In this document: positions 28,121 through 44,309 of the stretch, piece after piece
How the letters are laid out: every line of letters begins with the position of its first letter
How positions within the stretch are numbered: the stretch's first letter is position 1
NCBI GenBank assembly: GCA_965223845.1
Contig: CBDCXR010000004.1
Coordinates: forward strand, 7,328,001-7,392,000
DNA from: Planctomycetota bacterium
Lineage (GTDB): Bacteria; Planctomycetota; UBA8108; SXIK01
Reading direction: 5' to 3'
Length of the DNA stretch: 64,000 bases
The notes under the pieces: generated by a model
Told to the model about the DNA's origin: nothing
Seen by the model: only the letters and a program-made list of their open reading frames with translations
Databases searched by the model: none
Made by a program: the position numbers and the translations under genes

Positions 28121-28169
28121 TGGTATCCCCGAGAGGACTCGAACCTCTGACCTGCGGTTTAGGAAACCG
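28121..28169 (-). repeat. att site: duplicated 3' part of tRNA-Arg
   Basis: 49-bp direct repeat of 44233-44281 with one mismatch (28150 A vs 44262 G). Confidence 0.95.
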
Positions 28170-28312: not shown

Positions 28313-29551
28313 GTGGCAGGCAGACATCACAAGACTATCGCTGGTCGCTGGGTTGTGCGCAGCCTCTACAAACACCCATCCGGGATCTGGTATGGACGGG
28401 TTCGGGACAAGAGAACGAACCGCCTCCACAAGGTCTCGTCCAGGGAAACGCAGAAGAGGAAGGCGGAGCAACGAATCCTTGAGTGGGTCGAAGAGAAACT
28501 GCGGCAGGAGGAGCTTGGAATTACCGAGCGCGTTTTGTTTGACCACGCTTTCCCCGACTGGATTGACCAGAAGGGTCAGTTGCGGGAACGAGTCCGACGT
28601 GGCTACGAGATGGATTTCAACGGGATCTACCTGCCGGCATTTCGCGGAAAACTCATCGATGCGATCGAAGTAAGGGATATCGAGGAGTTCAAACGCCTGC
28701 TTGAAGAAAAGCGAAACCTCGCCCCTCGGACCGTACAAAAGCACCTGGGAGTCCTTCGAGGCTTTTTCACCTGGGCACGTCGCCGCAAGTACTGTGCGGT
28801 CAATCCCTGCGAGGAGGTCACGGTCAAAAACGTGCGGTCCAAAAGAGATGTTGTCATACTCTCCATGCCGGAAGCAAAGCTACTGCTCAAAGCTTGCGAG
28901 GAGCCGTTCTACGTCGTCGATAGTAGGAAGAGCACGAAGTATCCCGCGTATCCACCGCCGTACTTGAGCGTCGCCGTTTTTCTCGCGCTCCGGCTCGGAC
29001 TGCGAAAGTCCAACATCCTCAATCTTCGATGGAAACAGGTGGACTTCGACAAGCAGACCGTGAAGATCCACGGCACTGAGATGAAGAACCACAAGTCTCA
29101 CGAGCTACCGCTGTCTCGCGAGGTTGTCGGGTTTCTCACCAAGTTGCACGAGAACAGCGGGACTAACGGGCAAGCTCCTTCGGGAGAGCAACCCGTCATC
29201 GGTCAGCGCATCCGCGATCTCAAGCGAAGCTTCCGCTCTGCTGCCGTGCGTGCCGACCTGGGACCGGACCTTCTGTTCCACCACCTTCGTCATTGCTTCA
29301 GTTCATGGCTGGCGGACAAGTGCACGTACCCGACGCTGCAAGCGTTGCTGGGTCACTCGATTCCAAACTCGGTTACCGGTCGGTACATTCACACTGGTCT
29401 CCCAGAGATGCGTCAAGCTCTGGAGAAGCTGGAGTGGTTGACCGAGAAGCCATTCGATTTCAAGATTCCACGGAGGCGCAATCCGAATTGGCAGAAACGT
29501 GTCGAGCAGGATCTTTTTGAGATCAAGGCTGCTCTTGCGCGCCGCGTTTAG
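28313..29551 (+). CDS. Tyrosine recombinase / integrase
   Basis: Catalytic residues GLRKSN (R), HHLRH (HxxR), LLGHS (H), TGRY (Y); core-binding LAPRTVQKHL. Confidence 0.93.
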   Translation: MAGRHHKTIAGRWVVRSLYKHPSGIWYGRVRDKRTNRLHKVSSRETQKRKAEQRILEWVEEKLRQEELGITERVLFDHAFPDWIDQKGQLRERVRRGYEMDFNGIYLPAFRGKLIDAIEVRDIEEFKRLLEEKRNLAPRTVQKHLGVLRGFFTWARRRKYCAVNPCEEVTVKNVRSKRDVVILSMPEAKLLLKACEEPFYVVDSRKSTKYPAYPPPYLSVAVFLALRLGLRKSNILNLRWKQVDFDKQTVKIHGTEMKNHKSHELPLSREVVGFLTKLHENSGTNGQAPSGEQPVIGQRIRDLKRSFRSAAVRADLGPDLLFHHLRHCFSSWLADKCTYPTLQALLGHSIPNSVTGRYIHTGLPEMRQALEKLEWLTEKPFDFKIPRRRNPNWQKRVEQDLFEIKAALARRV

Positions 29552-29805
29552 TCGGCGTCTTCGAGGTGTTGCCTACTCGCTCGATCCTGGGGCTGGGGAG
29601 GCTTGAGCGACGGGGTAACCGTCTGAGCGGTTCTGTGCCCAATAGCTTAAGCCCGTCAGGAGTCCAAGAAGTCCCACAGTCGGCTCCGAAGGTCTGTCCA
29701 GCCCACAGGACCAGAGGGCTGTCTTCGGGCACGTACAGGCGCTGAGGGCTTTGCCGAGCGGTATGAGCCGTTGCCGCTATGCTGACGTGCTGATATGGTG
29801 TCATC

Positions 29806-30030
29806 ATGCCTAACAAGAAGTCCTCCAGGAGCAAGAAGCGTTCTCCGGCGAAAGTCCGACCCAGGGCAGGGGAAACAACCACGGAGACGCCCGGCGGACT
29901 CTTGCGAAAACAGGTCTACTTGCTCCCAGAGGAATGGGATGCCCTCCGAACGCGAGCCTTCGAGGAAGAGCGTTCTCATTCGGACATTGTTCGTGCAGCG
30001 CTCCGAGCTTACCTGGGTCTGAAGGGCTGA
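29806..30030 (+). CDS. Ribbon-helix-helix (CopG-like) protein
   Basis: RKQVYLLPEEWDALRTRAFEEERSHSDIVRAALRAYL fits the RHH strand-helix-helix pattern. Confidence 0.75.
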   Translation: MPNKKSSRSKKRSPAKVRPRAGETTTETPGGLLRKQVYLLPEEWDALRTRAFEEERSHSDIVRAALRAYLGLKG

Positions 30031-30039
30031 AGCGGACCG

Positions 30040-30210
30040 ATGGAACTTATCTTCTTTGTTCTGATCCTCCTCTGGTTCCGCCGCAAGCCGCGCAACGAGT
30101 CCGAGGAGATTGAGAAAGGGCTCCTCGCGACCATTCTCCTTGTCGCGGCGATCGCCACCATCGCCTCTCCGTCCTCTGCTCAGCGACCTCCAGAGAAGAT
30201 CGATCCGTAA
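30040..30210 (+). CDS. 56-aa small membrane protein (below ORF-track cut-off)
   Basis: Hand translation MELIFFVLILLWFRRKPRNESEEIEKGLLATILLVAAIATIASPSSAQRPPEKIDP; two hydrophobic segments; 9 nt after RHH stop. Confidence 0.55.
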   Translation: MELIFFVLILLWFRRKPRNESEEIEKGLLATILLVAAIATIASPSSAQRPPEKIDP

Positions 30211-30471
30211 CCCCCTAAGATAGCAACAAGCGATCGATACTTCCTCCTGTCGTACGTGTCCGTCAGCCGTAGCGAGGAACACGCGGGAGCGAGCCCGCAG
30301 CGATAGCGGAGGTGAGCGGTAGCCGTGTTTCGAGTCTCGGCGTTCCCGGTGCCTGAAGACCCCTCTCCACGAATCCTGGAGCCCTTAGAACCTGCGACGG
30401 TTCGACCGGGGGTAACCCATTTCGGGAGGATCGCCTTGTCCAAGACGGGACGGAATCCCCATTGTAGATAG

Positions 30472-30672
30472 TTACGTCCGCTCTCGTCCGAAACGTTTCC
30501 GGCGACGACGGTCAACGTGGAGATTCCGGGGCTCTGATTCCTTGTTTCTGGAATCCTGCGAGACTCCTGGTCTGCCCGATGCGAGGCGAGGAGACCGGAC
30601 GACGCAAACGGGGCGTACGACTCGCCAGCCTGTCTCAGGACGAGCTGGGAAGGATCTCGCGGGGGAACTCAT
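30472..30672 (-). CDS. Small hypothetical protein
   Basis: ATG overlaps the stop of the HUH gene (TGATG); no recognisable motif. Confidence 0.3.
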   Translation of the reverse strand: MSSPARSFPARPETGWRVVRPVCVVRSPRLASGRPGVSQDSRNKESEPRNLHVDRRRRKRFGRERT

Positions 30673-32027
30673 CAGGCAACCTCCGTACTGAATGGCGGGG
30701 CATGGGAAGGAGGCAGTGAGCTACCCCGGTCCATTTTCGGTGGAGACTGGAAGACCTCCAGGGGAGGAACAGGAACGTTTACGTTTCCGTTGATGCCTTC
30801 GGTGCCCCAGAATCTCAACCGAGGGAGTTCCCCGCGCTGCCACTCGTCTACCTTCTTCGTCTCGCTTCCACACTTCCGACACTTGGTTGCCTCCCGCTCA
30901 CCGGCATCTTTCTGCACGTCCCGACCACCAGAGAGCTTCGTAGGAAGCGGACGATTCAGTAAACGGCAAAGCGCTGTGATCTTCTCTCTCTGCCCCCTCC
31001 CGTTAGCGAGGAAGCCGTAGTCGCGAGACTGCTTGAATCTCTTGGGGAGCGCGTGGCGAAGAAGACGAGTGATGAATTCTGGTACGCTAAGTGTCCAAGT
31101 CTTCTTGACGCGCTTTCGCTTGCCGTCGTTCCACTCCTCGCTCTCTAAAGTCACTTTACCATTGGTGTGGTCGATGATCTGCTCGTTGGAGATGGGACCC
31201 GTGGCGATCACCCTTCCAACGTAGCGGATCAGTGTGAGTGTTTCGTTCGTGGCTTTGATTTCGAACCAGAATCTCCATTCGAGGCTGGGGTTCTCCAAAT
31301 GCTTCCTGAGTTCCTGCGCGTCCTTCAGGTGCGCCTGCTTCCCGTAAAACTTCAGCTTCGGATGTACGGCAACGAGGCGTTCGATCATCTCCTCTCGAAA
31401 GACTCTTTCTAACAGCCGCTCAGGGAACGTGTCGTTTCGGAACCACTTGACACGCGAACGGTCAGCCGACAGTCCAACCGCCGGACCAATCATGTGTACG
31501 TGCGGATCGTAGAACAGATCCCCGGCTGCCGTCTGAACGACGGAGGTGAACCCGATTCCGGCTCCCAGCCTCTCCTCGGCGACTCTCTTCAGTGTCGCTG
31601 CCGTCGCGGCGAATAGGATATCCAGGACTATCCTTTTGTTGTCACCCCAGGCGAGCGATGCCAAGTCGGATGGTGGTTTCGGGACAGCGTGAAAGAATCT
31701 CACGTCAGGAGGATAGAGCGCTTTTCTGTTTGCCATCCACTTCGCCTTATCCTCGCGTCCGCATTTGGGGCAAAGCTTGTTTCCACAACTGAGGAACGAA
31801 GCTTGGCGATGTCCACATTCCTTGCAACTATGGACCCTTCCGCCGCACCTCAGCGTCTTGCAGATCGACATGGCGAGGAGCGCGTCTGCCTCTTCCCACG
31901 GGAGCCCACGATGCGCGTCGATGTAGGCGGAAGCATGCCGGCGAAGTAGATCCTGGACAGTGACCCTTCCCGTCTCTGGAGTCCTCTCAGAGTTCGTCGG
32001 GAGTTCCTTCGGGGGAGTGGAGATCAT
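30672..32027 (-). CDS. IS91-family-like HUH transposase/Rep protein
   Basis: N-terminal Zn domain (CKECG...SCGNKLCPKCG), HUH PHVHMI, RYVGR, ISNEQI, FITRLLRHALPKRFKQSRDYGFLAN, C-terminal CRKCG. Confidence 0.85.
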   Translation of the reverse strand: MISTPPKELPTNSERTPETGRVTVQDLLRRHASAYIDAHRGLPWEEADALLAMSICKTLRCGGRVHSCKECGHRQASFLSCGNKLCPKCGREDKAKWMANRKALYPPDVRFFHAVPKPPSDLASLAWGDNKRIVLDILFAATAATLKRVAEERLGAGIGFTSVVQTAAGDLFYDPHVHMIGPAVGLSADRSRVKWFRNDTFPERLLERVFREEMIERLVAVHPKLKFYGKQAHLKDAQELRKHLENPSLEWRFWFEIKATNETLTLIRYVGRVIATGPISNEQIIDHTNGKVTLESEEWNDGKRKRVKKTWTLSVPEFITRLLRHALPKRFKQSRDYGFLANGRGQREKITALCRLLNRPLPTKLSGGRDVQKDAGEREATKCRKCGSETKKVDEWQRGELPRLRFWGTEGINGNVNVPVPPLEVFQSPPKMDRGSSLPPSHAPPFSTEVA

Positions 32028-32494
32028 GGCTTCCCCTCCCCGTCAGGATCGCTCGCAGCGCCTACGTACTGCCACACCTTCAGCTCGCGGCTATGGGATT
32101 GCCGACGACGGCTCTTGACTCGCTCTCCGGTGAAGACCCAGCAACGTTGCTTGAACAGGCTTCCAGCGGCGTTGCCCAGATCGGAGTACCGAAGCCCGTC
32201 GCTTTCCAGGGCGACGCAAACGTCCTCGGCTGTGCATCGTCGGTCAGCGCGTGACAGGGCTATGCGAACCGATACCTTCCTCGCGTACTGTAGTGCGTCA
32301 CGATGGTTTCGTGCCGCCCGCTCCATCCCCTCGTGTTTCGCGACTTCGCTGGCGTCGCTGCGTCCGACATGACTCCTGCAAGTAGGTTCAGCGACTTCAT
32401 CAAGCGCGTCGCGCAATTCGTCGAGCTGCTGCGCTGAGAGACCAGAGAGCAAGTCTCGAACGCTCTGACGAAGAGGGTCTTGGGGAGCTGTCAC
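32024..32494 (-). CDS. Hypothetical protein, phage-like
   Basis: GGGAGGTG RBS before GTG; ATGA overlap with HUH gene; LGNAAGSLF...TGERVKS...HSRELKVW. Confidence 0.7.
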   Translation of the reverse strand: MTAPQDPLRQSVRDLLSGLSAQQLDELRDALDEVAEPTCRSHVGRSDASEVAKHEGMERAARNHRDALQYARKVSVRIALSRADRRCTAEDVCVALESDGLRYSDLGNAAGSLFKQRCWVFTGERVKSRRRQSHSRELKVWQYVGAASDPDGEGKP

Positions 32495-32939: not shown

Positions 32940-33557
32940 ATGGCATCACGAACAACTCGCGAAAGACGAGCTGCGCAGGGAAGATGCGTCGCCTGCGGAG
33001 AATCGAAGGCGCAGCCGGAGCGGCGACTGTGCTCGCCATGCCGGAGCGCTCTGGACAGGGTGAAAGTCTTGGCTCGCGCTCGTGGTTGGCGCGATGACCG
33101 ACCGCACTCCTCGATGCGCAAAGCGATGACGAAGCAGGAGGCGCGTCAGCGAAAACTCTGGAGAGCCGACGAACGACGTTTACGTCGGTCCAGGGAATCT
33201 GAAGCGGTAGTCGAACGTCAGGGGGCGGGCAAGAAGACGCTGGTCGGGGAGGATTCGACATCGCACGTCGCCAAGGCGGGGACCAGTACGGCTCAGGCAG
33301 CGACACCGGTTCCGCCGTCGAATGCGCCTGTCGTGTCTCCAACGTTGACAGAAGGAGAATCGGAGCAACGGATTTGGGAGACCAACCAAGCCTATTGGGA
33401 ACGGATTCGTGGCGAAACGGCTCACGATCTCGCAGCTCGCCTTCTTCGCGGAGGGCATGACGAACAGCGGCTCGTCACGCTCGTGTGCCGTCGATATGTG
33501 ATCCGCGCTGAAGTCGCGGAGGGAATCGTTGACCGCGCTTGGGATGAGGTTGAATGA
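32940..33557 (+). CDS. Hypothetical protein with N-terminal Zn finger
   Basis: CVACG...CSPC; ATGA overlap with next gene. Confidence 0.55.
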   Translation: MASRTTRERRAAQGRCVACGESKAQPERRLCSPCRSALDRVKVLARARGWRDDRPHSSMRKAMTKQEARQRKLWRADERRLRRSRESEAVVERQGAGKKTLVGEDSTSHVAKAGTSTAQAATPVPPSNAPVVSPTLTEGESEQRIWETNQAYWERIRGETAHDLAARLLRGGHDEQRLVTLVCRRYVIRAEVAEGIVDRAWDEVE

Positions 33558-34252
33558 AGGGGCAGCGAATGATGCCGAAGTTGGAAGACGCTTTTGAACT
33601 GACAGCGCGAGAAGCTTGGAACCGCAGCTCCCTTGAGGAACGATCGACCTTCAAGCGCGGTCCCTACCAGCTCAGCGTTGCGCTTGAACGTCGGGACGGC
33701 AGCGAATCGAAGCGTGTCGTCGTGAAGTACGCCCTCGCAGACGAATGCGGAAGCCAGATTCTGTCGGAGCGCGAGCAGGAACTCGTTGTCGATGATTGCC
33801 CGCGTCAGTTCGGTGGTTCGGAGCCGCTTCTTCGATGCCCAAGCTGTTCGCGGCGCTGTCGTGTGCTGTTCATGCATCCGAGTGCAACGCGGTTCTCATG
33901 TCGGGAGTGTTCGGCGCTGTCACACGGCAAGCGCGAACGTAGACGAAAGCGTGGCAGGGTAAGACTCGACTCGTCCGAGATCGAGGAATTGTTGGTGAAT
34001 TGGAAGCGCCCAGCCCCAGATCCGCTCACGAATCTGATTCAAGCGCTACTCGCCTGTCCTCCCGAGGTGGGAGCTACCGGATACAGAGCGATCGAACCCT
34101 TCATCATCAGCAAGTATCAAGCGTTCCTGGCGGACCAAGCGAGACTTGCCGAGCGCGATCAATCCGAGCTGGACGCGACGCTGCGGCGCTATCGGGAAAT
34201 CTTGAAACGACTGGAGTCTGACAGCGCGGCGTCAGACGGGTGCCCTCAGTGA
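33554..34252 (+). CDS. Hypothetical Zn-ribbon protein
   Basis: FGGSEPLLRCPSCSRRCRVLF...FSCRECSALSH. Confidence 0.7.
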   Translation: MKGQRMMPKLEDAFELTAREAWNRSSLEERSTFKRGPYQLSVALERRDGSESKRVVVKYALADECGSQILSEREQELVVDDCPRQFGGSEPLLRCPSCSRRCRVLFMHPSATRFSCRECSALSHGKRERRRKRGRVRLDSSEIEELLVNWKRPAPDPLTNLIQALLACPPEVGATGYRAIEPFIISKYQAFLADQARLAERDQSELDATLRRYREILKRLESDSAASDGCPQ

Positions 34253-34316: not shown

Positions 34317-35357
34317 TTACTCCGGTGTTGGAGAGCTTTGCAGCACACCCGAATCTTCGCCCTCCACCGGGCGCAAAGCGGATCGCGCAAGGTGTTGCTT
34401 CATCTCGTCCTCGCTCAGCCGGCGGATATCCGACTCGCGGATATTCTCGTGGAAGCCGCAGCTTAGCGCGCCTGCATGCTTCGCCCACGGTTTCTCGAAA
34501 TGGTCGTCGTCCTGGGGTCTCGTGAACTGCACCGTCGCCGGATCGACCCCGCCACGGATCTTCAGAAACGACTGAAGGTTTCTGATTGATAGCGCGAGCA
34601 TCATGAGACCGTGCGCGACGTTTTCGACATCCCAGTTGAGGCTGTGTTCCTTGACGCGGAAATGTGGGTCACGCTTGCCTGCTGGACTCCCGTCTATGGG
34701 GGCGGCTTCATGGAAAGTGCTGCCCCATCGGCTGCTTCCGAGGCTGCTCATGTTTTCGAGTGCAGCCGGTATTCCTGGTGTCTCTTCCAGCCCAAACCGT
34801 AGCTCGAAGCCACCAGGTCGGATTCTCAACCCATGCTTCGCGCAATTGTACTCGCGGGTGTGGAGGTGATTCTGAAAATCACTCCCGAACCGACGCCACA
34901 GGATCGAGAACAACTCTCGCGTTTTTTCGAGTTTTGCTTCGTCATCGTAGGAGAAGAGAAGGACTCGGCTGGCAACGTCTGCCCACGAGACCCGTTCAAG
35001 TCCGAGACGATTCAGAAGGCGGTCACCGACATCGAGTGCGTTCAGAATCTCTCGTAGGTGGCGCGGTTGGCACTTCTGAAACCAACCCACCACGCATTCC
35101 GGGGCTTGAATCGACGCACCAAGAAGCATGAAGAACGTTTCGAGCGCATGGTGGTAGCCCGACCGCATTGACATTGCGGCGTAGTGGCGTTCGTCGCATT
35201 CCACTTTCTCGATGTGTGTGGTAGCCAGATACTCGAAGTACGCCGGGTCGATGCTCTCGACGAAAGATAAGTTGCGACGGGTCAGGTCGCCGTCCCACAT
35301 ACAGTAGGCTCGGTCAACAACCAGGAAAGGCGCGCCTTCCATCGAATGATTCTCCAT
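34317..35357 (-). CDS. Hypothetical protein, possible HEPN-like RNase
   Basis: 346-aa largely helical protein with YHHALETF and REYNCAKHG motifs. Confidence 0.6.
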   Translation of the reverse strand: MENHSMEGAPFLVVDRAYCMWDGDLTRRNLSFVESIDPAYFEYLATTHIEKVECDERHYAAMSMRSGYHHALETFFMLLGASIQAPECVVGWFQKCQPRHLREILNALDVGDRLLNRLGLERVSWADVASRVLLFSYDDEAKLEKTRELFSILWRRFGSDFQNHLHTREYNCAKHGLRIRPGGFELRFGLEETPGIPAALENMSSLGSSRWGSTFHEAAPIDGSPAGKRDPHFRVKEHSLNWDVENVAHGLMMLALSIRNLQSFLKIRGGVDPATVQFTRPQDDDHFEKPWAKHAGALSCGFHENIRESDIRRLSEDEMKQHLARSALRPVEGEDSGVLQSSPTPE

Positions 35358-35538
35358 TCACTTCTCTGCTCAGTGCTATTGCCAACTGGTAGCCTAACAC
35401 CGATTCTCGCGCTTGTCCCGAATTGCGCTGCAACCGGCGTGCCACAGCATTTTTTGGTGCTAACGAACAATAGGGTTCCCTCTTGGACGCTATGACACCA
35501 TGATGATATGCTTGTCTGACACCTCAGAGAAAGAGTCC

Positions 35539-36276
35539 GTGAACAATACTGCCGCCTGCGACAACAACCGTGCCGTCGCCTATGTCCGCGTTAGCACTGA
35601 CGAGCAAGCCCAGGAGGGTGTGAGCCTGGCTCTCCAGGAGCGTCACGTCCGAGTGTATTGTGACCTGAAGGGGCTTGAACTCGTCGATATCATTCGGGAC
35701 GAGGGGATCTCAGCGTCGAAACCCCTCAGCGACCGTCGTGGTGGAGCGGAATTTCTGCGGACTCTCGCCTCGGGCGAAATCGCAAACGTGATCTCGCTCA
35801 AATTGGATCGGTTCTTTCGGAGCGCGTCCGACGCGCTCAACGAGACCAAGCGTTGGGATAAGGCTGGGGTTGCCCTTCATCTCGTGGACCAGGGCGGGGC
35901 GACCATCGACACGAAGAACTCGACGGGGAAGCTGTTCTTCACGCTCCTCGCGGCAATGGCTGAGTTCGAGCGGAACTTGATCTCCGAACGGACTACAGCG
36001 GCTATGCGACACCTTAAGACAGTGCGCCGAGCATACTCGCCGACGCCCTTCGGCTTCGACCGGATTGACGACGAACTCCGGGAGAATGCGGACGAACTCC
36101 GGGTCGTCAAACGAATCCGGGAGATGCGAGCCGGCGAATTGTCGCTCGGCAAGATCGCTGCCACTCTGAACCGGGAAGGTGTCCCCACGAAGACGGGGAA
36201 GAAGTGGCATGGGAGCACGGTCCACTATATTCTTCGGAACCAGCTCTACCAGGAGGTCGGAGTCGCTTCGGACTAA
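35539..36276 (+). CDS. Serine recombinase (resolvase domain plus short recombinase/HTH domain)
   Basis: AYVRVSTDEQ catalytic Ser, KLDRFFRS, AEFERNLISERT, PFGF, IAATLNREGVPTKTGKKW. Confidence 0.92.
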   Translation: MNNTAACDNNRAVAYVRVSTDEQAQEGVSLALQERHVRVYCDLKGLELVDIIRDEGISASKPLSDRRGGAEFLRTLASGEIANVISLKLDRFFRSASDALNETKRWDKAGVALHLVDQGGATIDTKNSTGKLFFTLLAAMAEFERNLISERTTAAMRHLKTVRRAYSPTPFGFDRIDDELRENADELRVVKRIREMRAGELSLGKIAATLNREGVPTKTGKKWHGSTVHYILRNQLYQEVGVASD

Positions 36277-36502
36277 CGGATCGCGGACGCCCCGCCGCTG
36301 AAGGGGTGAACAGAATTTCCGTGCGTCCCAATCCGGTTCCCCGCGCTCGGGACCCGCAACGGCGACAACTGTTTCTTTCGCGGGCGTGAGTGGAACCGTC
36401 AAGGTTTATTCCCCCGGCGGAGTGCTCGATTGCCGTCAAGGGACAGGGGGACTAAAGTACCCATTGGCTCATGTTGGAAGCGACACTGGCTCGAATCGGC
36501 TA

Positions 36503-37897
36503 ATGCTACTCACAATAACGAACAGAACTCCTGTTGCGACGGATCTCGGGTTTCTTCTACACAAGAACCCCTCGCGGCGTCAGTCCTTCAATCTTGCCTA
36601 CGGCAGAGCCCACGTGTTCTACCCAGAAGCGTCAGAGGAACGCTGCACCGCCGCACTCCTTCTGGACGTGGACCCCATCGGCTTGGTGCGGAACCGTAGG
36701 GGACCCGCCGGGGAAGGGTACACACTCGCTCAGTACGTCAACGACCGCCCCTACGTCGGTTCGTCACTTCTCAGCGTCGCCATCGCGCAGGTCTACGGTA
36801 CAGCACTTCAGGGACGCAGCAAACAACGGCAGGAACTCGCCGAGCAGCCCCTTTCGCTTGCGGCACGGCTCGCCGTTCTTCCCTGTCGAGGTGGGGAGGT
36901 CTTTCTGCGAAAGCTTTTTGAGCCGTTGGGCTACGAGGTCAGCGCGACACGCCATGTACTCGACGAGCAGTTCCCCGACTGGGGAGAGAGTTCTTACTTT
37001 ACGGTAGACATCGAGGGCGAAGTCCGCCTCCAGGACCTTTTGAGCCACCTCTACGTGCTGATCCCGGTTCTCGACAACGACAAGCACTACTTCGTCTCTC
37101 AGGACGAAGTGGAGAAGCTACTCAAGCGCGGCGAAGGGTGGCTGGCATCGCACCCCGCACGTGATGAGATCACGCGGCGGTTCTTGAAACACCAGAAGGG
37201 GCTCGCGAGACAAGCTCTTGCCCGGTTGACGGAGGATTCCGACCCGGACGAAACGGATGAAGTTCAAGCGCAGGAAGAAGCAGAAGTCGAGGAGACCATC
37301 AGCCTCAATGAGCAGCGCATGGGGTCGGTGGTAGCCGCGTTGCGAGGATGCGGGGCGAAGACCGTTATCGACTTGGGTTGCGGGGAGGGAAAGCTCCTTC
37401 AGGAGCTGTTCAAGGACCGCTCGTTTGAGAAAGTTGTCGGAATGGATGTGTCCATTCGGGCGCTTGAGAAGGCGCAAGCCAGGCTTCGATGGGATCGTCT
37501 GCCCGACATTCAAAAGAGTCGCATCGCCCTCTTCCAGGGCTCGCTGATGTACCGAGACCGGAGACTGGAGGGTTTCGATGCTGCTGCCGTTGTCGAAGTC
37601 ATCGAACATCTCGATCCGCCACGACTCGCTGCGTTCGAGCGCGTGGTCTTCGAGTTTGCCCGTCCCCGCGCTGCCGTCGTGACCACACCGAATGTCGAGT
37701 ACAACGTCAAGTTCGAGACGCTTCCGGCGGGACGATTTCGCCACCGCGACCATCGGTTCGAGTGGACTCGAAGTGAGTTCCAGGGCTGGGCAGAAAACGT
37801 GGCGGCTCGATTCGGGTACCGAGCACGGTTTCTCCCGGTCGGAACCGAGCTGGCAGACGTGGGCTCTCCGACCCAGATGGCGGTGTTCGAGCGATGA
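36503..37897 (+). CDS. hen1: Hen1 RNA 3'-terminal 2'-O-methyltransferase
   Basis: MLLTI...ATDLGFLLHKNP, YVNDRPY, HLYVLIPVLDNDKHY, DLGCGEG, EVIEH, RHRDHRFEWTR. Confidence 0.97.
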   Translation: MLLTITNRTPVATDLGFLLHKNPSRRQSFNLAYGRAHVFYPEASEERCTAALLLDVDPIGLVRNRRGPAGEGYTLAQYVNDRPYVGSSLLSVAIAQVYGTALQGRSKQRQELAEQPLSLAARLAVLPCRGGEVFLRKLFEPLGYEVSATRHVLDEQFPDWGESSYFTVDIEGEVRLQDLLSHLYVLIPVLDNDKHYFVSQDEVEKLLKRGEGWLASHPARDEITRRFLKHQKGLARQALARLTEDSDPDETDEVQAQEEAEVEETISLNEQRMGSVVAALRGCGAKTVIDLGCGEGKLLQELFKDRSFEKVVGMDVSIRALEKAQARLRWDRLPDIQKSRIALFQGSLMYRDRRLEGFDAAAVVEVIEHLDPPRLAAFERVVFEFARPRAAVVTTPNVEYNVKFETLPAGRFRHRDHRFEWTRSEFQGWAENVAARFGYRARFLPVGTELADVGSPTQMAVFER

Positions 37898-40482
37898 AAG
37901 TCACGGTACCCGAGCTTTCTCTCGTTATTCTGATGGGACCTTCCGGGTCAGGGAAGTCTACGTTTGCACGGAAGCACTTCTTGCCGACCGAAGTCCTGAG
38001 TTCTGATTACTGTCGAGGACTCATATCGGACGACGAGAACGATCAAACCGTCACGGATCATGCCTTCGAGCTGCTTCACTTCATCGCGGCGAAGCGCTTG
38101 ACGAAGAAACGGCTTACGGTCATCGATGCGACGAACGTGCACGCGGAAGACCGCAAGAAACTTGTCGCCCTCGCCCGTGAGTATCACGTCCTTCCTGTCG
38201 CGATCGTCCTCAACCTGCCTGAAAGGCTCTGTCAGGACAGGAACAAGGAGCGCTCCGATCGGAACTTCGGTCCGCACGTCATCAACCAGCAGCGTCGGGC
38301 TCTGAGGAGGTCTCTCAGAACCCTGAAGAAGGAGGGCTTTCGCCACACGTTCGTCTTCAAGACGCCGGAGGAAGTCGAGGGTGCCACCCTCGAACGCACC
38401 AAGCTCTGGACGGACCGGCGTGACGAGCACGGACCGTTCGACATCATCGGCGACGTTCACGGTTGCTACGACGAGCTGGAGGAATTGCTCGGGACGCTCG
38501 GCTACGGAGCGACTGAGCGAGAGCCCGCAGGTCCTCTGGAATCCTCGCGGGTATACACACACCCTGACGGTCGAAAGATCGTGTTTGTCGGCGATCTCGT
38601 CGATCGTGGACCACGGAGTCTCGATACTCTCCGGCTTGCCTACACGATGGTGAAGGATGGTCTCGCGATCTGCGTGCCCGGAAACCACGACATCAAATTC
38701 TTGCGAAAGCTTCGTGGGAAGAACGTCCAGATCACGCACGGGCTTGCGGAAACGTTGGCTGAGCTGGAGTCTCTGCCGACCGACATCCGTCCGGGATTCG
38801 AGCAGGAAGCAGCGCGCTTCATCGACGGGCTCGTGAGTCACTTTCTTCTCGACGACGGCAAGCTTGTGGTCGCGCACGCCGGAATGCGGGAGGACATGCA
38901 AGGACGAGCGTCTGGGAAGATCCGCGAGTTCGCTCTGTTCGGCGAGACTACCGGCGAGACCGACGAGTTCGGGCTTCCCGTGCGACACGATTGGGCGTCA
39001 GAGTACCGGGGAAGTGCGATGGTCGTGTACGGTCATACTCCGATACCTGAGCCGGAGTGGCTGAACCGAACGATCAATATCGACACCGGATGCGTTTTTG
39101 GCGGGAAGCTGACCGCGCTTCGCTACCCAGAGAAGGAACTCGTTTCTGTCGAAGCGCGGCAGACCTACGCAGAATCGCGACGACCGTTTCTGCCGGAGGA
39201 GGAGCAGGCTCCGAAACTCTCAGCGCAGCACGAGCACGACGACGTTCTCTATGTCGAAGATGTGAGCGGGAAGAGGCAGGTTCACACCCGATTGCGGAAG
39301 GCGGTGACGATCCGCGAGGAGAACGCCATTGCTGCTCTGGAGGTCATGACTCGCTTTGCCGCGAACCCGAAGTGGTTGATCTACTTGCCACCCACGATGT
39401 CTCCGTCCGAGACCAGCAAGGAAGGCGGGCTTCTGGAGCATCCGCAAGAGGCGTTTAGCTTCTACCGAAGTCGAGGAGTCCCGAAGGTCGTCTGCGAAGA
39501 AAAGCACATGGGTTCGCGGGCTGTTGTGATCGTTTGTAAGGACGAAGGCGTCGCTCGCGAACGATTCGGCGTCGAGGCGGACGGGGCGGGGATCTGCTAC
39601 ACAAGAACCGGACGACGATTCTTCAATGACCGGGCGCTCGAATCTGAGTTCATCGATCGCGTGAAACGTGCGTTCGATGAGTCGGAGATGTGGGGCGAGT
39701 TGGACTCGGATTGGGCATGCCTTGATTGCGAGTTGATGCCGTGGTCCGCGAAAGCTCAGGAACTGCTTCAGCACCAGTACGCGGCTGTCGGTGCGTCGGC
39801 GAAGGCTGCACTGGCGGAAGTCCTTCCCGCTCTTCGAGGTGCCGTAGAACGCGACTGCGAGATTCAGGAGCTTGTTGACCGCTACTCGCATCGAGCGGAA
39901 CTCGTCACACAGTACACGCAGGCATACCGACAGTATTGTTGGTCAGTGTCCAGCGTCGATGACCTGAAGCTCGCTCCTTTCCATATTCTCGCGACCGAAG
40001 GCTCGACGCACGTAGACAAAGACCACGTGTGGCACATGGAGACGATCAAGCGATTCTGCGGAGTCGATGAGAGCCTACTCCTTTCGACGCCGTACCTCGT
40101 CGTCGATTTGATGGACCCCGCGAGCGAAGAGGCGGGAATTCGGTGGTGGGAGAAGCTGACCGGCGACGGCGGAGAGGGGATGGTCGTCAAGCCTCTCGAT
40201 TTCATCGCAGTCGGGAAGCGCGGATTGATGCAACCGGCAGTGAAATGCCGGGGTAAGGAGTACCTGCGGATCATTTACGGACCGGAGTACACCATCCCGG
40301 AGCACCTGGAGCGTCTGCGCGGGCGAGGGCTGTCGGCAAAGCGGTCGTTGGCGCTTCGAGAGTTCGCCCTGGGCGTCGAATCGCTCGAACGGTTCGTTCG
40401 GAAGGAACCGCTACGCCGCGTCCACGAATGTGTGTTCGGAGTTCTTGCGTTGGAGAGTGAGCCGGTCGATCCGCGCCTTTGA
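37894..40482 (+). CDS. pnkp: Polynucleotide kinase-phosphatase-ligase Pnkp
   Basis: Kinase GPSGSGKST and DATN; metallophosphoesterase GDVHG, GDLVDRG, GNH, GHTP, DTG; ligase EEKHMGSR, EGMVVKP; C-terminal ESEPVDPRL. Confidence 0.97.
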   Translation: MKVTVPELSLVILMGPSGSGKSTFARKHFLPTEVLSSDYCRGLISDDENDQTVTDHAFELLHFIAAKRLTKKRLTVIDATNVHAEDRKKLVALAREYHVLPVAIVLNLPERLCQDRNKERSDRNFGPHVINQQRRALRRSLRTLKKEGFRHTFVFKTPEEVEGATLERTKLWTDRRDEHGPFDIIGDVHGCYDELEELLGTLGYGATEREPAGPLESSRVYTHPDGRKIVFVGDLVDRGPRSLDTLRLAYTMVKDGLAICVPGNHDIKFLRKLRGKNVQITHGLAETLAELESLPTDIRPGFEQEAARFIDGLVSHFLLDDGKLVVAHAGMREDMQGRASGKIREFALFGETTGETDEFGLPVRHDWASEYRGSAMVVYGHTPIPEPEWLNRTINIDTGCVFGGKLTALRYPEKELVSVEARQTYAESRRPFLPEEEQAPKLSAQHEHDDVLYVEDVSGKRQVHTRLRKAVTIREENAIAALEVMTRFAANPKWLIYLPPTMSPSETSKEGGLLEHPQEAFSFYRSRGVPKVVCEEKHMGSRAVVIVCKDEGVARERFGVEADGAGICYTRTGRRFFNDRALESEFIDRVKRAFDESEMWGELDSDWACLDCELMPWSAKAQELLQHQYAAVGASAKAALAEVLPALRGAVERDCEIQELVDRYSHRAELVTQYTQAYRQYCWSVSSVDDLKLAPFHILATEGSTHVDKDHVWHMETIKRFCGVDESLLLSTPYLVVDLMDPASEEAGIRWWEKLTGDGGEGMVVKPLDFIAVGKRGLMQPAVKCRGKEYLRIIYGPEYTIPEHLERLRGRGLSAKRSLALREFALGVESLERFVRKEPLRRVHECVFGVLALESEPVDPRL

Positions 40483-40495
40483 TCGGAGGTGTCGA

Positions 40496-41044
40496 TTGGA
40501 AACAGAGATTGCGAAATACTTCTGCGAACTGGGGCAGCTAAAGCGCGTGAAACGTTCGGGGTGGTGGCTCGCCGGCGTCCGAGATCCAGAGAGTGTAGCT
40601 GAGCATACGTTTCGCACAGCAGCCATCGCGTACGTCCTGGAAGGGGCGAACCCGGAGAAGGCTGCGGCTCTTGCGTTGTTTCACGACACGGCAGAGGCGC
40701 GGGTCAATGACATGCATCGGCTGGGGAAGAAATACGCGGACTGGACCGGCGTAGAGGAAAAGGTTGTGGAGGACCAAACGTCATCCCTCTCGGAGGAAGT
40801 TGCGGAAGGAATTCGAGGGCTTACTGCCGAATACAAGGAAGCGAAGTCCAGCGAAGCCGTAATCGCTCGTGACGCTGATCGTTTGGAGTGCTTGCTTCAA
40901 GCCCATGAGTACCACCAGCAAGGGGTAGCGGCGGCGGAGGAGTGGATTCAGAATTCGCGAGACGCCCTTAGTACGGATGCCGCCAAGAAGATCGCAACAC
41001 AGGTGTTGAGTCACGACGCAGCCAATTGGTGGGAAGAAGACTGA
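40496..41044 (+). CDS. HD-domain hydrolase (YfbR/HDDC2-like 5'-nucleotidase)
   Basis: LKRVKRSGW, ESVAEHTFR, FHDTAEAR, DADRLE; TTG start after GGAGGT. Confidence 0.88.
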   Translation: METEIAKYFCELGQLKRVKRSGWWLAGVRDPESVAEHTFRTAAIAYVLEGANPEKAAALALFHDTAEARVNDMHRLGKKYADWTGVEEKVVEDQTSSLSEEVAEGIRGLTAEYKEAKSSEAVIARDADRLECLLQAHEYHQQGVAAAEEWIQNSRDALSTDAAKKIATQVLSHDAANWWEED

Positions 41045-43369
41045 ATGCCGAGATACGATTTTTCGTCGCTCTCTTGGGCAGACTTTGAGGAGCTGTCTCG
41101 GGATCTCCTCCAAGAGGAACTGTCCCTAACGTTGGAGAGCTTCAAAGCCGGTCGAGACAAAGGCATCGACCTACGGCACTCCAAAGATCCAAGCGGCGAC
41201 TTGATTGTGCAGTGCAAGCACTACGCGGCTTCGGGAACCGAAAAACTCATTCGACACCTCCGCAGCAAGGAACAGCCAAAGGTCAAGAAGCTTCAGCCGA
41301 AACGCTACCTTCTCGTGACCTCAGCCGGATTGACTCCCTCGAACAAGGACGAGATCAAAGGGATCTTCGCCCCTTTCGTACACACGCCCCAAGACATTTT
41401 CGGCTGCGATGAAGTAAACAATCTGCTTGGGAAGTTCCCGGAAGTCGAAAAACGTCATTTTAAACTCTGGCTGAACAGCGAGCCAATTCTACAGCGAGTA
41501 CTGCACAGCGATGTTTTCGTCCAGTCTGGCTTCGAGGAGAAGGAGATCAGGAAAACCCTAAAAACCTACGTGCAGACGAAGAGTTTTGGCAAGGCGTTGA
41601 ACGTTCTGGAAGACAACAAGGCGTGCATAATCTCTGGCATACCCGGCATAGGGAAGACAACGCTGGCGAAAATCCTCCTTGTCCACTACCTCAGCAAGGG
41701 CTTCGAGCTTATCAAGATACGAAACGACATCTCAGAGGCGCAGAGAACGTACAAAGTGGACGCGAAGCAGGTGTACTACTATGACGACTTCTTGGGTCAG
41801 ACGAGCCTCCGGGAAAAGTTGAACAAGAACGAAGACTCAGGGCTTATCAATTTCATTCGCCATCTGGAAGGGTCAAAGAGTAAGCGATTCATCCTGACAA
41901 CGCGGGAGTACATACTCCAGCAAGCCAGGTCTGTGTACGAACCGCTCGCCCGTGCGGACCTCGATTGGTACAAGCTCGTCGTCAGCTTGTCAGACTACAG
42001 CAACTTCGACAAAGCGAAGATACTCTTGAACCACCTGGAAGCTGCCTGCCTTTCAAAGCCCCACATTGCGAGTCTGATGCAGGGGAGGACTTACCTCAAG
42101 ATCATCAAGCATCCGAACTACAATCCACGAATCATTGAGTCCATGACCGACCGGGCGCGGATAAGGTCGGTCCCCCCAGAATCCTACGCGGAGCACTTCT
42201 TGCAGAGCCTGACGAGCCCGTCAGAGATTTGGTCACACGCCTTTGAGAAGCAGATAAGCACGAACGCACAGGAAGTCCTGTTCGTGCTTGCGAGCCTGCC
42301 CAGAGAGGTATTCCTCGACGACTTGCGTGTGGCATTCGAGGCTTTTCACCAGAGTGTGTGCGACAAGTACAATAGAGCGCACAGTTCAACAGATTTTCAG
42401 GAGGCTTTGAGGGAGCTGGAGGGCAGTTTCACCATCACTGAGAGAATCGATAAGGATTTTGTGGTTCGGTTTCACAACCCCTCGGTGCGAGACTATCTCG
42501 AATCTCGATTGGAGAAGGACGACCAGGTCGTACGTTCTCTCGTTGTAAGCTGTCGCTTCTTTGAGCAGCTTTCCGGGCTATGGAATCTCGCGCCGGCAGG
42601 GAATCGAACGTACCCCATCAGGCGGTTCATTGCTCAAGATGTCTCGTCCTTTGTGGAAAGCGCCGAGCGGAGTTTCCTAACGCAGTCCTGTGGACTCATG
42701 ACCGACTGGACGCCTCGGGAGCGGAGGGCGTTAGATGTCGAAGATCGGTTGGAGACCATCGTTCGTGTGTGCGCAGAGATCTCGGACGCAACGCACGCGG
42801 ACGCTTTGATCAGGATGACGAGGATAGTGCTGAATCGATTAGCGGAAGGACAGGGAGAGAAGGAGAGCCTTGTGGCTCTCCTTGAATACCTGAATGGCGC
42901 GGACAAGTTTGGGCTTAAGACGGAAGAGCTAATAGGAACTGCCCGTTCATTCTTCATAGGTGATCTGCGCTCACTTGATGATTTTGAGCGTTTCCTCGAA
43001 TTTCGGGAAATTGTCCCAAACGCGGTCACGGACGACGACTTTGATCTGGCTACAAGGACGTTTAGCGACGTTCACTTTGACGATTGCTACAACGAGGTTT
43101 GGGAGGCGAATGATCCCGAACAACTTGAAGAGTATAGAACGCGATTGAGCAGCGTGGGCAACGCACTGTCGGTCAGTACGAGCGTGGGCGAGGAGAGGAT
43201 TTCGGAGAAAGTGAGCGAGCTGGAGGAACAACAAGCGAGATACGAGGATCACTTGTACGACGAGTACCGCGAGGAGCGAGCGTTCAAGGAGCAAGAAGAG
43301 CGTGGTACCGACACGGAGATCGACCGGCTCTTTGATACGCTGCGCGAGAGTGCGGAGCAGTCAGAATGA
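41045..43369 (+). CDS. Mrr-like restriction endonuclease fused to nSTAND3-type NTPase
   Basis: DFEELSRDLL...DKGIDL...IVQCKHY nuclease; GIPGIGKTT Walker A, YYDDFLG Walker B, ILTTREYI, YNPRIIE, FHNPSVRDY; acidic C-terminus. Confidence 0.85.
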   Translation: MPRYDFSSLSWADFEELSRDLLQEELSLTLESFKAGRDKGIDLRHSKDPSGDLIVQCKHYAASGTEKLIRHLRSKEQPKVKKLQPKRYLLVTSAGLTPSNKDEIKGIFAPFVHTPQDIFGCDEVNNLLGKFPEVEKRHFKLWLNSEPILQRVLHSDVFVQSGFEEKEIRKTLKTYVQTKSFGKALNVLEDNKACIISGIPGIGKTTLAKILLVHYLSKGFELIKIRNDISEAQRTYKVDAKQVYYYDDFLGQTSLREKLNKNEDSGLINFIRHLEGSKSKRFILTTREYILQQARSVYEPLARADLDWYKLVVSLSDYSNFDKAKILLNHLEAACLSKPHIASLMQGRTYLKIIKHPNYNPRIIESMTDRARIRSVPPESYAEHFLQSLTSPSEIWSHAFEKQISTNAQEVLFVLASLPREVFLDDLRVAFEAFHQSVCDKYNRAHSSTDFQEALRELEGSFTITERIDKDFVVRFHNPSVRDYLESRLEKDDQVVRSLVVSCRFFEQLSGLWNLAPAGNRTYPIRRFIAQDVSSFVESAERSFLTQSCGLMTDWTPRERRALDVEDRLETIVRVCAEISDATHADALIRMTRIVLNRLAEGQGEKESLVALLEYLNGADKFGLKTEELIGTARSFFIGDLRSLDDFERFLEFREIVPNAVTDDDFDLATRTFSDVHFDDCYNEVWEANDPEQLEEYRTRLSSVGNALSVSTSVGEERISEKVSELEEQQARYEDHLYDEYREERAFKEQEERGTDTEIDRLFDTLRESAEQSE

Positions 43370-43503
43370 CCGCCGACCAAAGCTCTGCGCCTCTATCGTT
43401 TTACGATCAAGGCTCGTCTGGACATCGTCGCGATTCAAGTTGGGAATCTGAATTGAAGTTGCTGGTGCCGTGGCTGCGTGTGACTATGACGATTCGGTGA
43501 GTC

Positions 43504-44109
43504 GTGTTGTTCGACCGGAGAGATGCAGTGAGCCGACGATCTGACGAAAGCGTACAGCCGCCCCCATCGGTTTCAGTGCCAGGGCTCAGCGTCGTCGAAC
43601 TGGTGATGGCGATCGAGGAGACTTTCGGGCTCGCCATTCCCGACAGCGACGCGGAGCGGATCGTCACCGTGGGTGATATCAAGAGGTACCTGAGGTCCCG
43701 TGTCCGGCGTGACTGTTCAACCGATTGTGCTTCGCAGCGAGCGTTTTACCGCCTGAGAAGCGTCGTTTGTGACGAGCTGTGCGTTTCGCCGAAGGTCGTA
43801 CAGCCCCGCCGGAGGTGGCTCGATGTTCTCCCTGCACGAGGTCGTCGTGTAGCGTGGAAGCGAATCGTAAGGAGGGCACGGCTTCCTCACCGCGCCCGTT
43901 GGAGCCTTCCGGTCCTTCGCTGGAACCTGCCGTCATTCCGAAACACGGTAGGATGGTCAGCGCGTCTACTGGCGGCGTCGGAGCCTCTGCCTGTCAAGGC
44001 TCCCAGTGAAGGCTGGACTCGCGATGAGATTTCGCGCACGGTTGACCGCTTGGTGATGGACGTGTGCGAAATCACGGACTTCTCCGACGAGGTTTTCCTC
44101 GCAGACTGA
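43504..44109 (+). CDS. Protein with acyl-carrier-protein-like domain (start uncertain, possibly degenerate)
   Basis: [33 protein letters not shown] followed by [11 protein letters not shown]. Confidence 0.55.
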
Positions 44110-44232
44110 ACGAGCAGTTTGACGCCGATGTTCGGCGGGTACGATCGCAGTTCTTCGCGGTTTTCATCCGTCCCTTTCACGTCCCAGAACTTCGGACAAC
44201 TGCGCAGCGAATCCCGTAAGTCCTGGAAAGAG

Positions 44233-44309
<77 letters not shown>

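Follow-up and report, generated by a model that had tools for sequence, protein, structure and literature searches.

The four tightly packed genes for Hen1, Pnkp, an HD_3 phosphohydrolase and an Mrr-nSTAND3 protein (here the STAND protein) in the window, that is, the whole 64,000-nt stretch of DNA analyzed, are probably mosaic cargo of a tRNA-Arg(CCT) island, with two independent modules packed head to tail. The first module would be a hen1-pnkp RNA-repair pair that carries, in a narrow lineage, an extra HD_3 gene drawn from a family that otherwise stands alone in the order, and the second an autonomous single-gene, Avs/NLR-like candidate defense protein (PADLOC PDC-S73). The joining of two known modules on one island is a warning against taking tight packing in defense islands as functional coupling. 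The genes and their predicted products are as follows:

36503..37897, + strand: hen1, RNA 3'-terminal 2'-O-methyltransferase, 464 aa (Hen1_L, E 8.5e-113; TIGR04074)
37894..40482, + strand: pnkp, kinase-phosphatase-ligase, 862 aa (AAA_33, Metallophos, PNKP_ligase; TIGR04075)
40496..41044, + strand: HD_3 (AF1432/HDDC2/YfbR-like) phosphohydrolase, 182 aa, TTG start (PF13023)
41045..43369, + strand: Mrr-like nuclease, nSTAND3 NTPase and all-helical C-terminal region, 774 aa (PADLOC PDC-S73; Avs-like fold)

All four open reading frames were found where a first-pass annotation of this DNA had placed them, family profile matches agree with the identities that it had assigned, and its description of the junctions (an ATGA overlap, a 13-nt spacer with GGAGG and an abutting TGA|ATG) was right. 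The genes share one orientation and are close-packed, with hen1 and pnkp having the ATGA at 37894-37897 in common. Between the pnkp stop (40480-40482) and the TTG of the HD gene at 40496 lie 13 nt (TCGGAGGTGTCGA); the TTG stands 6 nt downstream of the GGAGG inside this spacer. The HD stop TGA (41042-41044) abuts the STAND ATG at 41045 with 0 nt between them, the tightest of the three junctions. The TTG form of the HD protein (182 aa) is identical to a catalogued protein. Promoter and terminator scans gave counts at or below shuffle expectation, and the terminator scan found no terminator-like site on the + strand between the four genes. Given this and the overlap, 13-nt and 0-nt packing, all four are probably transcribed together and co-expressed in the present genome, which leaves room for their functional coupling. 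Close co-oriented gene packing is widespread in bacteria and is by itself no more than chance would give. GC3 is alike over the four genes (0.63-0.71), so that composition does not split the block into two modules.

The island measures 16.1 kb, lies at tRNA-Arg(CCT) and is bordered by a 49-nt direct repeat. The first-pass annotation had placed the genes on a tRNA-integrated island, and the tRNA, the repeat and the integrase bear this out:

28121..28169, - strand: left border of the island, formed by the far copy of the 49-nt direct repeat of the tRNA-Arg 3' half (98% identical to 44233-44281)
28313..29551, + strand: 412-aa island integrase of the tyrosine type (Phage_integrase, E 6.3e-22)
30672..32027, - strand: IS91-family (Y2) transposase (Y2_Tnp, E 5.6e-26; Zn_Tnp_IS91, E 3.5e-17)
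35500..36276, + strand: 258-aa shortened form of a large serine recombinase (its match to CcrB covers the first 232 of 542 positions and no more)
43501..44109, + strand: open frame, probably a remnant, in which a domain match shows an acyl-carrier-protein domain reduced to its C-terminal half
44233..44309, - strand: tRNA-Arg(CCT), integration site and right end of the island (tRNA call and repeat)

The XerC/XerD-like matches of the tyrosine integrase stay below their cut-offs. GC content is 0.56-0.60 inside the island versus 0.64-0.67 outside, and GC3 is 0.59-0.73 in island genes versus 0.77-0.79 in flanking genes.

With respect to the first module, profile scores at equivalog level (Hen1, TIGR04074, 723.1 bits with a cut-off of 340; Pnkp, TIGR04075, 1425.7 bits with a cut-off of 750) identify hen1-pnkp as a canonical bacterial RNA-repair pair. 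Like the Clostridium thermocellum/Anabaena-type system, it comprises a full-length three-domain Pnkp (AAA_33, 10-138; Metallophos, 181-384; PNKP_ligase, 480-857) and a two-domain Hen1, with the N-terminal, Pnkp-associating Hen1_L at 1-242 and C-terminal SAM methyltransferase domains at 285-432. The co-oriented order of hen1 then pnkp, with overlapping stop and start codons, is also that of known Pnkp/Hen1 systems, and Hen1 lies within 1.5 kb upstream of pnkp in 24/29 other loci of the same phylum. Unlike those systems, the module here stands on a tRNA-integrated island and has, as do two close copies, an HD_3 gene 13 nt after pnkp. By homology, Hen1 and Pnkp would act on cleaved RNA as a heterotetramer, by healing, methylation and sealing: Pnkp would heal 2',3'-cyclic-phosphate and 5'-OH ends, Hen1 would then 2'-O-methylate the RNA 3' end, and Pnkp would seal the break, leaving a repaired site that resists re-cutting by the ribotoxin. 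This function matches the outline given in PMC3675462 and PMC4411300.

The HD protein belongs to PF13023 (HD_3, E 4.7e-29) and to the AF1432/HDDC2/YfbR family, as indicated by its sequence matches in the PDB (1yoy and 1ynb, AF1432, E 1e-23; 4dmb, HDDC2; further 1xx7, 2cqz, 5yox and 2paq, YfbR) and by its H...HD...D metal ligands (H37, H63, D64 and D128), which are invariant in 25 sequences. Its closest solved relative in sequence comparison is AF1432. We rejected an assignment as equivalog of the E. coli 5'-deoxynucleotidase YfbR (NF003009, 38.6 bits versus a cut-off of 122). Copies at 59-61% amino acid identity occur in six genomes of the order, all without Pnkp and STAND, and there they lie beside genes of metabolism or of other, unrelated functions (nitroreductase, APS kinase, sulfatase). 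Genome G000 holds a second HD copy (56%) elsewhere on the chromosome. In the tree, the island HD nests within the stand-alone HD family of the order, and by this sequence evidence the family is otherwise a stand-alone gene there.

We observe that the linkage of HD to hen1-pnkp recurs, in a segment shared with a genome of a sister genus (G338):

36420..40571, + strand: segment 89% identical at the nucleotide level to G338, covering hen1, pnkp, the spacer of 13 nt and HD as far as codon 25

The G338 copy encodes Hen1 and Pnkp with 97% and 95% amino acid identity to those of the window. Its pnkp is interrupted by a DDE-transposase IS, and its HD, as we read the sequence, breaks off behind codon 25, where it meets transposase-like remnants. 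A search of the whole G338 genome gave no STAND match; the DNA past HD codon 25 has been replaced, and a STAND gene may once have stood there. A third source, a 3,959-nt contig from a public run (X6), is 92% identical, spans the pnkp-HD junction and reaches 263 nt into HD. Thus hen1-pnkp-HD descended as one segment, which moves between genera of one bacterial family. The neighborhood search proposed in the first-pass annotation therefore has a divided outcome, in which hen1-pnkp-HD does recur, only as copies at least 89% identical, and the STAND gene is never near hen1-pnkp or HD in 85 loci.

Since hen1-pnkp-HD moves as a unit in three sources, HD may be more than a passenger. We nevertheless regard it as unlikely that hen1-pnkp-HD is a real three-gene RNA-repair variant, with HD taken up as a functional accessory (such as one for additional healing of 2',3'-cyclic or 3'-phosphate ends or for clearing nucleotide by-products) and with an independent STAND gene. 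The order of hen1, pnkp, 13 nt and HD is the same in the window, G338 and X6, and the catalytic H...HD...D residues of HD are intact. Pnkp operons do gain lineage-specific accessories: RlaP (PF10127) stands directly before pnkp in a locus of another family of the phylum and a preprint counts it among the RNA-repair accessories (PMC12776372). The RlaP operons described there, with RlaP beside RNA ligases, are alike in that an extra enzyme gene is packed in, in some lineages only; they differ in that RlaP is a Pol-beta nucleotidyltransferase, whereas the enzyme added here is an HD_3 phosphohydrolase and is confined to one close-knit lineage. Against a three-gene variant, all three instances copy a single segment with at least 89% identity and hence represent one evolutionary event, not independent conservation, and both pnkp and HD are broken in G338. 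The HD family is, moreover, common as a stand-alone gene in unrelated contexts, and a search of five longer HD-containing proteins, which is weak evidence, found no Pnkp, Hen1 or STAND domain on them.

In three phylum samples, 56 other Pnkp loci were covered, and none has HD or STAND beside pnkp (0/29 in the same phylum, within 1.5 kb of pnkp; 0/23 in two other phyla; 0/4 further loci of the class). Downstream sequence of at least 1,091 nt is available in 27 of the 29 same-phylum loci, and the HD HMM recovers copies of 39-61% identity (E 3e-49 to 1e-92) as a positive control. Among the same 29 loci, the gene 3' of pnkp is common to only one pair.

The second module is a single protein with Mrr_cat at residues 7-106 (E 1.7e-10) and nSTAND3, an NTPase named for Avs5 according to a preprint (bioRxiv 10.1101/2025.07.08.663546), at 175-332 (E 1.7e-51). 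The PADLOC check that the first-pass annotation had suggested returned the catalogued single-gene candidate PDC-S73, which matches end to end (E 1.9e-176; residues 1-764 of 774 on positions 1-750 of 752). In length and domain order the protein is like its homologues, which number in the thousands: 3,717 of the 8,000 scored candidates have E ≤ 0.001. In an alignment of 39 homologues, Mrr D42, Q56 and K58, Walker A G198-K204 and Walker B D247 and D248 are invariant. The present protein is a divergent member, its best full-length homologue among the scored candidates being 44% identical, and in no other member seen do an RNA-repair pair and an HD gene precede the STAND gene. In the main texts searched, the name PDC-S73 was not found.

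An AlphaFold2 model of the STAND protein (pLDDT 82.4) is almost entirely helical over residues ~480-774, where pLDDT is mostly >80. Foldseek places Avs4 bound to phage portal first (8dgf_B, E 7.8e-9), followed by SAMD9, a plant NLR resistosome (6j5t), Avs5, Avs3, CED-4 and Apaf-1, so that the model resembles Avs4, Avs5 and Avs3 in structure. As in Avs4 and Avs5, an N-terminal effector precedes a central STAND NTPase with Walker A/B motifs and a helical C-terminal region. No PDB relative was found by sequence, and no Avs model is among the PADLOC matches at E ≤ 0.01, which makes the likeness to Avs4, Avs5 and Avs3 structural only. Unlike the Avs4 (1,534 aa) and Avs3 (2,028 aa) chains, the protein has only 774 aa, and its effector is of Mrr type, whereas that of Avs5 is Sir2. 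In the proposed mechanism, the helical C-terminal part would sense a phage cue, the nSTAND3 NTPase would oligomerize and the N-terminal Mrr-type PD-(D/E)xK nuclease would cut DNA. This divergent member of PDC-S73, for which the Avs4-like model is confident, lends itself to a test on its own.

We examined 85 loci of STAND homologues (four and one from separate searches plus the best 80 of 518), of which 69 have at least 600 nt and 52 at least 1.5 kb of upstream sequence. Hen1 or Pnkp (tblastn, E ≤ 1e-3) and HD (HMM, E ≤ 1e-3) were each found near the STAND homologue in 0/85 of these loci, and the largest family of flanking ORFs occurs in 4/86 loci, so that no recurrent neighbor is seen. As far as sequence can tell, PDC-S73 stands alone as a single-gene candidate, without a conserved partner. 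The homologues found are all at most 53% identical, and a close relative of the present gene whose neighbors could be checked is therefore lacking.

The packing of the STAND gene behind HD also admits readings in which both modules act together. It is rather improbable that the mobile hen1-pnkp-HD is a three-enzyme RNA-repair system with a working HD that is here translationally coupled to an Avs-like nuclease, with infection sensing and the mending of RNA damage, collateral or inflicted by phage, expressed as one unit. Still less probable is the single defense system proposed in the first-pass annotation, in which the Avs-like sensor-nuclease would kill or arrest the infected cell, HD would deplete or process nucleotides and Pnkp/Hen1 would mend RNA for recovery or for resistance to RNases of phages or competitors. 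The junctions fit one transcript with translational coupling, and all genes are intact with their catalytic motifs. A weak hint is that Pnkp is present on another contig in 4/5 other genomes with a PDC-S73 homologue, versus a base rate of 1-10% in the phylum samples; n is tiny, and genome size and taxonomy confound the comparison. Joint action of the four genes, if real, would connect NLR-like phage sensing with RNA repair for the first time. The neighborhoods do not support this: the combination occurs in none of the 85 STAND loci and none of the 56 other Pnkp loci, the former an outcome that the annotation had itself named in advance as speaking against a joint system, and PDC-S73 homologues have no neighbor in common. 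Furthermore, the Mrr effector would, by family assignment, cut DNA, and DNA damage is not mended by Pnkp/Hen1; the only close copy of the segment, in G338, is decaying and lacks STAND; and titles and abstract openings of the papers found to treat Pnkp, Hen1, phage and defense together mention no such system.

HD-family nucleotide hydrolases function in other immune systems. Together with the abutting HD stop and STAND start, this favors HD and STAND as a two-gene defense pair, with HD as second effector or regulator, that landed 3' of an unrelated hen1-pnkp; we consider this the least probable reading, as none of the 69 STAND-homologue loci whose upstream sequence reaches 600 nt or more encodes an HD, the five longer HD forms include no HD-STAND fusion, and in G338 and X6 HD is joined to pnkp by the same 13-nt spacer, so that HD historically belongs with pnkp and not with STAND.

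All four genes that the first-pass annotation had proposed as one defense system are present at the described places in the window (G000:C4:7328001-7392000; the genome, G000, has 7.9 Mb and ~66% GC).

36503-37897, + strand: hen1, bacterial Hen1 with Hen1_L and a methyltransferase domain (TIGR04074, 723 bits against a cut-off of 340)
37894-40482, + strand: pnkp, full Pnkp with three domains (TIGR04075, 1426 bits against a cut-off of 750)
40496-41044, + strand: HD gene, HD_3 protein of 182 aa with a TTG start at 40496, six bases 3' of GGAGG
41045-43369, + strand: STAND gene, Mrr-like nuclease (Mrr_cat, residues 7-106) and NTPase (nSTAND3, residues 175-332)

The 182-aa TTG form of the HD protein is identical to a protein on record. 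The described junctions are likewise borne out, with an ATGA overlap between hen1 and pnkp, a 13-nt spacer between pnkp and the HD gene, and the HD gene's TGA abutting the ATG of the STAND gene, and this geometry makes it likely that the four genes are cotranscribed in G000. Between 35400 and 44300, promoter-like sites (3 versus 2.0 +/- 1.2 in shuffles) and terminator-like sites (5 versus 9.2 +/- 3.6) give no usable signal either way on a single transcript, and GC3 is alike across the four genes, so that composition cannot tell modules apart. We consider it probable that two modules have been packed into an integrative island by accretion: the first would be a canonical pair of RNA-repair genes accompanied, in this lineage, by an HD gene drawn from a family common in the order, and the second would be an autonomous Avs-like gene.

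The tRNA-integrated island itself is real, as indicated by the tRNA, its 49-nt repeat, an integrase, and GC and GC3 values lower than those of the flanks. Its features besides the four genes are the following.

44233-44309, minus strand: tRNA-Arg(CCT)
28121-28169: repeat of the 3' 49 nt of tRNA-Arg(CCT), with 16.1 kb between the copies
Inside the island, between the repeat copies: tyrosine integrase
Inside the island: IS91-type transposase
35500-36276, + strand: truncated large serine recombinase (258 aa, aligned to positions 6-232 of 542 in the CcrB model)
32940-33557, + strand: ORF
33554-34252, + strand: ORF
34317-35357, minus strand: ORF
29656-30282, minus strand: ORF
32024-32494, minus strand: ORF

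The five ORFs have no NCBIfam or PADLOC match and none of note in Pfam, where one of them gives a weak sub-threshold match to DZR_2; the two on the + strand overlap by 4 nt and may form another small operon. Between the STAND gene and the tRNA, an open frame (43501-44109, + strand) resembles acyl carrier protein at residues 25-67, with only the C-terminal half of that protein matched (NCBIfam E 1.4e-13, below the cut-off), and by sequence it looks like a gene remnant. Read depth is present in the bin 43479-43755 in two public sequencing runs, X5 and X6.

With respect to gene neighborhoods, the part of the proposal that recurs is hen1-pnkp-HD, and it does so in close copies only. Window positions 36420-40571 are found at 89% nucleotide identity in a sister-genus genome, G338 (L153, G338:C1, 11309-16962), with Hen1 at 97% and Pnkp at 95% amino acid identity, the same spacer and HD codons 1-25. 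A 3,959-nt contig from run X6 covers 37046-40758 at ~92% identity, spanning the pnkp-HD junction and stopping with the contig end 263 nt into the HD gene. These copies argue that hen1-pnkp-HD is a segment moving between genomes, and since each of the three is a close copy of the others, they count as one event. Viral contigs had no match to a 20-nt word taken from this pnkp-HD junction. Judged from its sequence, the G338 instance is decaying: its pnkp is split by a 1,480-nt insertion sequence encoding a DDE transposase, on both sides of which 12 nt of the window match, and similarity to the window ends after HD codon 25, beyond which the sequence reads like transposase remnants. A tRNA-Asp lies 1.6 kb beyond the truncated HD gene. 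In the G338 genome no STAND match or other HD match was found, and none of the window's other island genes turned up in the 34 kb inspected. On the window side, the truncated serine recombinase ends 144 nt upstream of the start of the G338-shared segment, which suggests a possible insertion of the hen1 block into the recombinase gene or next to it; no remainder of the recombinase was seen in 43370-44232 by eye in stop-to-stop frames.

Pnkp occurs widely in the phylum, with 39 of 401 genomes above the cut-off, and among the matches listed, Hen1 lies within 1.5 kb before pnkp in 24 of 29 other phylum loci. Neither HD nor STAND stands on either side of pnkp in any of these 29 listed loci, 27 of which offer at least 1,091 nt downstream, and genes 3' of pnkp are common to just one pair among them. 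In two further phylum samples, centered on G401 and G403, two genomes with a homologue of the STAND gene, a Pnkp match at E<=1e-100 occurs in 17/261 and 5/261 genomes, respectively, and no HD or STAND gene is found in the 23 Pnkp loci (one from an unpublished genome), nor in 4 further Pnkp loci of the class. Across these loci, gene content indicates that the accessories of Pnkp operons vary by lineage. One locus (L013) has a 326-aa ORF without a Pfam match between hen1 and pnkp (440-1420).

The HD family is populous (1,179 proteins at E<=0.001 among 2,290 candidates), and its members are stand-alone proteins of 182-197 aa, the best non-self match having 66% identity. In the sampled phylum genomes, the family is concentrated in the order to which G000 belongs, where DNA search finds a match in 12 of 20 other genomes; six of these carry copies 59-61% identical, yet lack Pnkp and STAND. 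Genes around the order's copies have metabolic roles or are otherwise unrelated, and G000 itself has a second HD_3 gene 2 Mb away (G000:C4:5337827-5338357; L129 1495-2043; 56% amino acid identity), flanked by genes for a nitroreductase and a DUF7948/SBBP protein. Maximum-likelihood phylogeny groups the island copy with a metagenomic protein inside the clade of the order's copies. The catalytic H...HD...D residues are intact; AF1432 and HDDC2 are the closest solved relatives, whereas YfbR is distant, and the HD protein scores below the YfbR equivalog cut-off. Five longer HD-containing proteins carry no Pnkp, Hen1, Mrr or nSTAND3 domains, which is weak evidence.

That the HD gene is instead a working accessory of RNA repair is, in our view, unlikely, given a family of stand-alone proteins among unrelated neighbors; such accessories do exist, as in another family of the phylum, where pnkp is immediately preceded by RlaP (PF10127) genes (L015, 742-1500 and 32-352). 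By title and abstract opening, the literature combining Pnkp, Hen1, phage and defense does not deal with a STAND or HD partner. An HD partner may have been described earlier, for instance in what is reportedly the main survey of RNA-repair gene neighborhoods (Burroughs and Aravind 2016, NAR 44:8525).

For the STAND gene, we considered 85 homologue loci: four from species-representative genomes with 10-kb flanks, one from 400 other sampled phylum genomes, and the best 80 of 518 metagenomic matches, with at least 600 nt of upstream sequence in 69 and at least 1.5 kb in 52. Neither Hen1 nor Pnkp (tblastn, E<=1e-3) nor a member of this HD family (E<=1e-3 with an HMM made from 120 HD proteins) occurs in any of them; in a control, the HMM found copies down to 39% identity at E 3e-49. 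When flanking ORFs are clustered, no family reaches beyond 4 of 86 loci. Together, these neighborhoods argue that the STAND gene is autonomous. A single four-gene system, with which the junctions in G000 are compatible, is thus very improbable, the combination being found in 0/85 STAND loci and in 0/29, 0/23 and 0/4 other Pnkp loci. Similarly improbable is an HD-STAND pair, whose two genes abut in the window. In runs X5, X6 and X10, bins 40986-43478 have little or no cover and none of the contigs listed links HD with STAND, a blank that says nothing on the relatives' STAND gene, and run X4 shares its study and organism label with X1-X3 (whole stretch present) and is not independent.

Full Pnkp is encoded on a different contig in four of five other genomes with a PDC-S73 homologue (G019, G401, G403 and G960; loci L031, L130, L131 and L180), versus a base rate of 1-10% of genomes in the phylum samples. 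This same-genome pairing is an unexplained hint of some relation, with a tiny n and with genome size and taxonomy as confounders.

In the PADLOC check, the STAND protein gives a full-length match to PDC-S73 (E 1.9e-176), which by sequence makes it a known single-gene candidate, although this name was not found in the literature searched. The PDC-S73-like family is a large one: of 8,000 scored candidates, 3,717 proteins reach E<=0.001. Almost all of these have 750-790 aa and the same two Pfam domains, and the closest full-length one among the scored candidates has only 44% identity. Across 39 aligned members there is no variation in the Mrr D...QxK residues, Walker A or Walker B, all of which are present here. 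No PDB chain matches by sequence. An AlphaFold2 model built from the homologue alignment is confident (mean pLDDT 82.4, pTM 0.66), and its top Foldseek match is Avs4 bound to a phage portal; next come SAMD9, a plant NLR resistosome (6j5t), Avs5 filaments, Avs3, CED-4 and Apaf-1. The Avs5 NTPase is described as nSTAND3 in a 2025 preprint (bioRxiv 10.1101/2025.07.08.663546). Motifs, model, structural matches and NTPase type together predict that the STAND protein works like an Avs/NLR protein. What it shares with Avs3, Avs4 and Avs5 is a similar predicted fold and, with Avs5, nSTAND3, whereas no PADLOC profile assigns it to any of Avs types 1-5. Its residues 3-159 (window 41051-41521), reaching past the Mrr_cat match, also match the PADLOC profiles Aga_TIR-PNTD1-PNTD2 (E 2.2e-44) and Aga_REase-TIR-PNTD1-PNTD2 (E 2.7e-32), and a nuclease-plus-helical head seems to be common to the STAND protein and both Aga candidate proteins.
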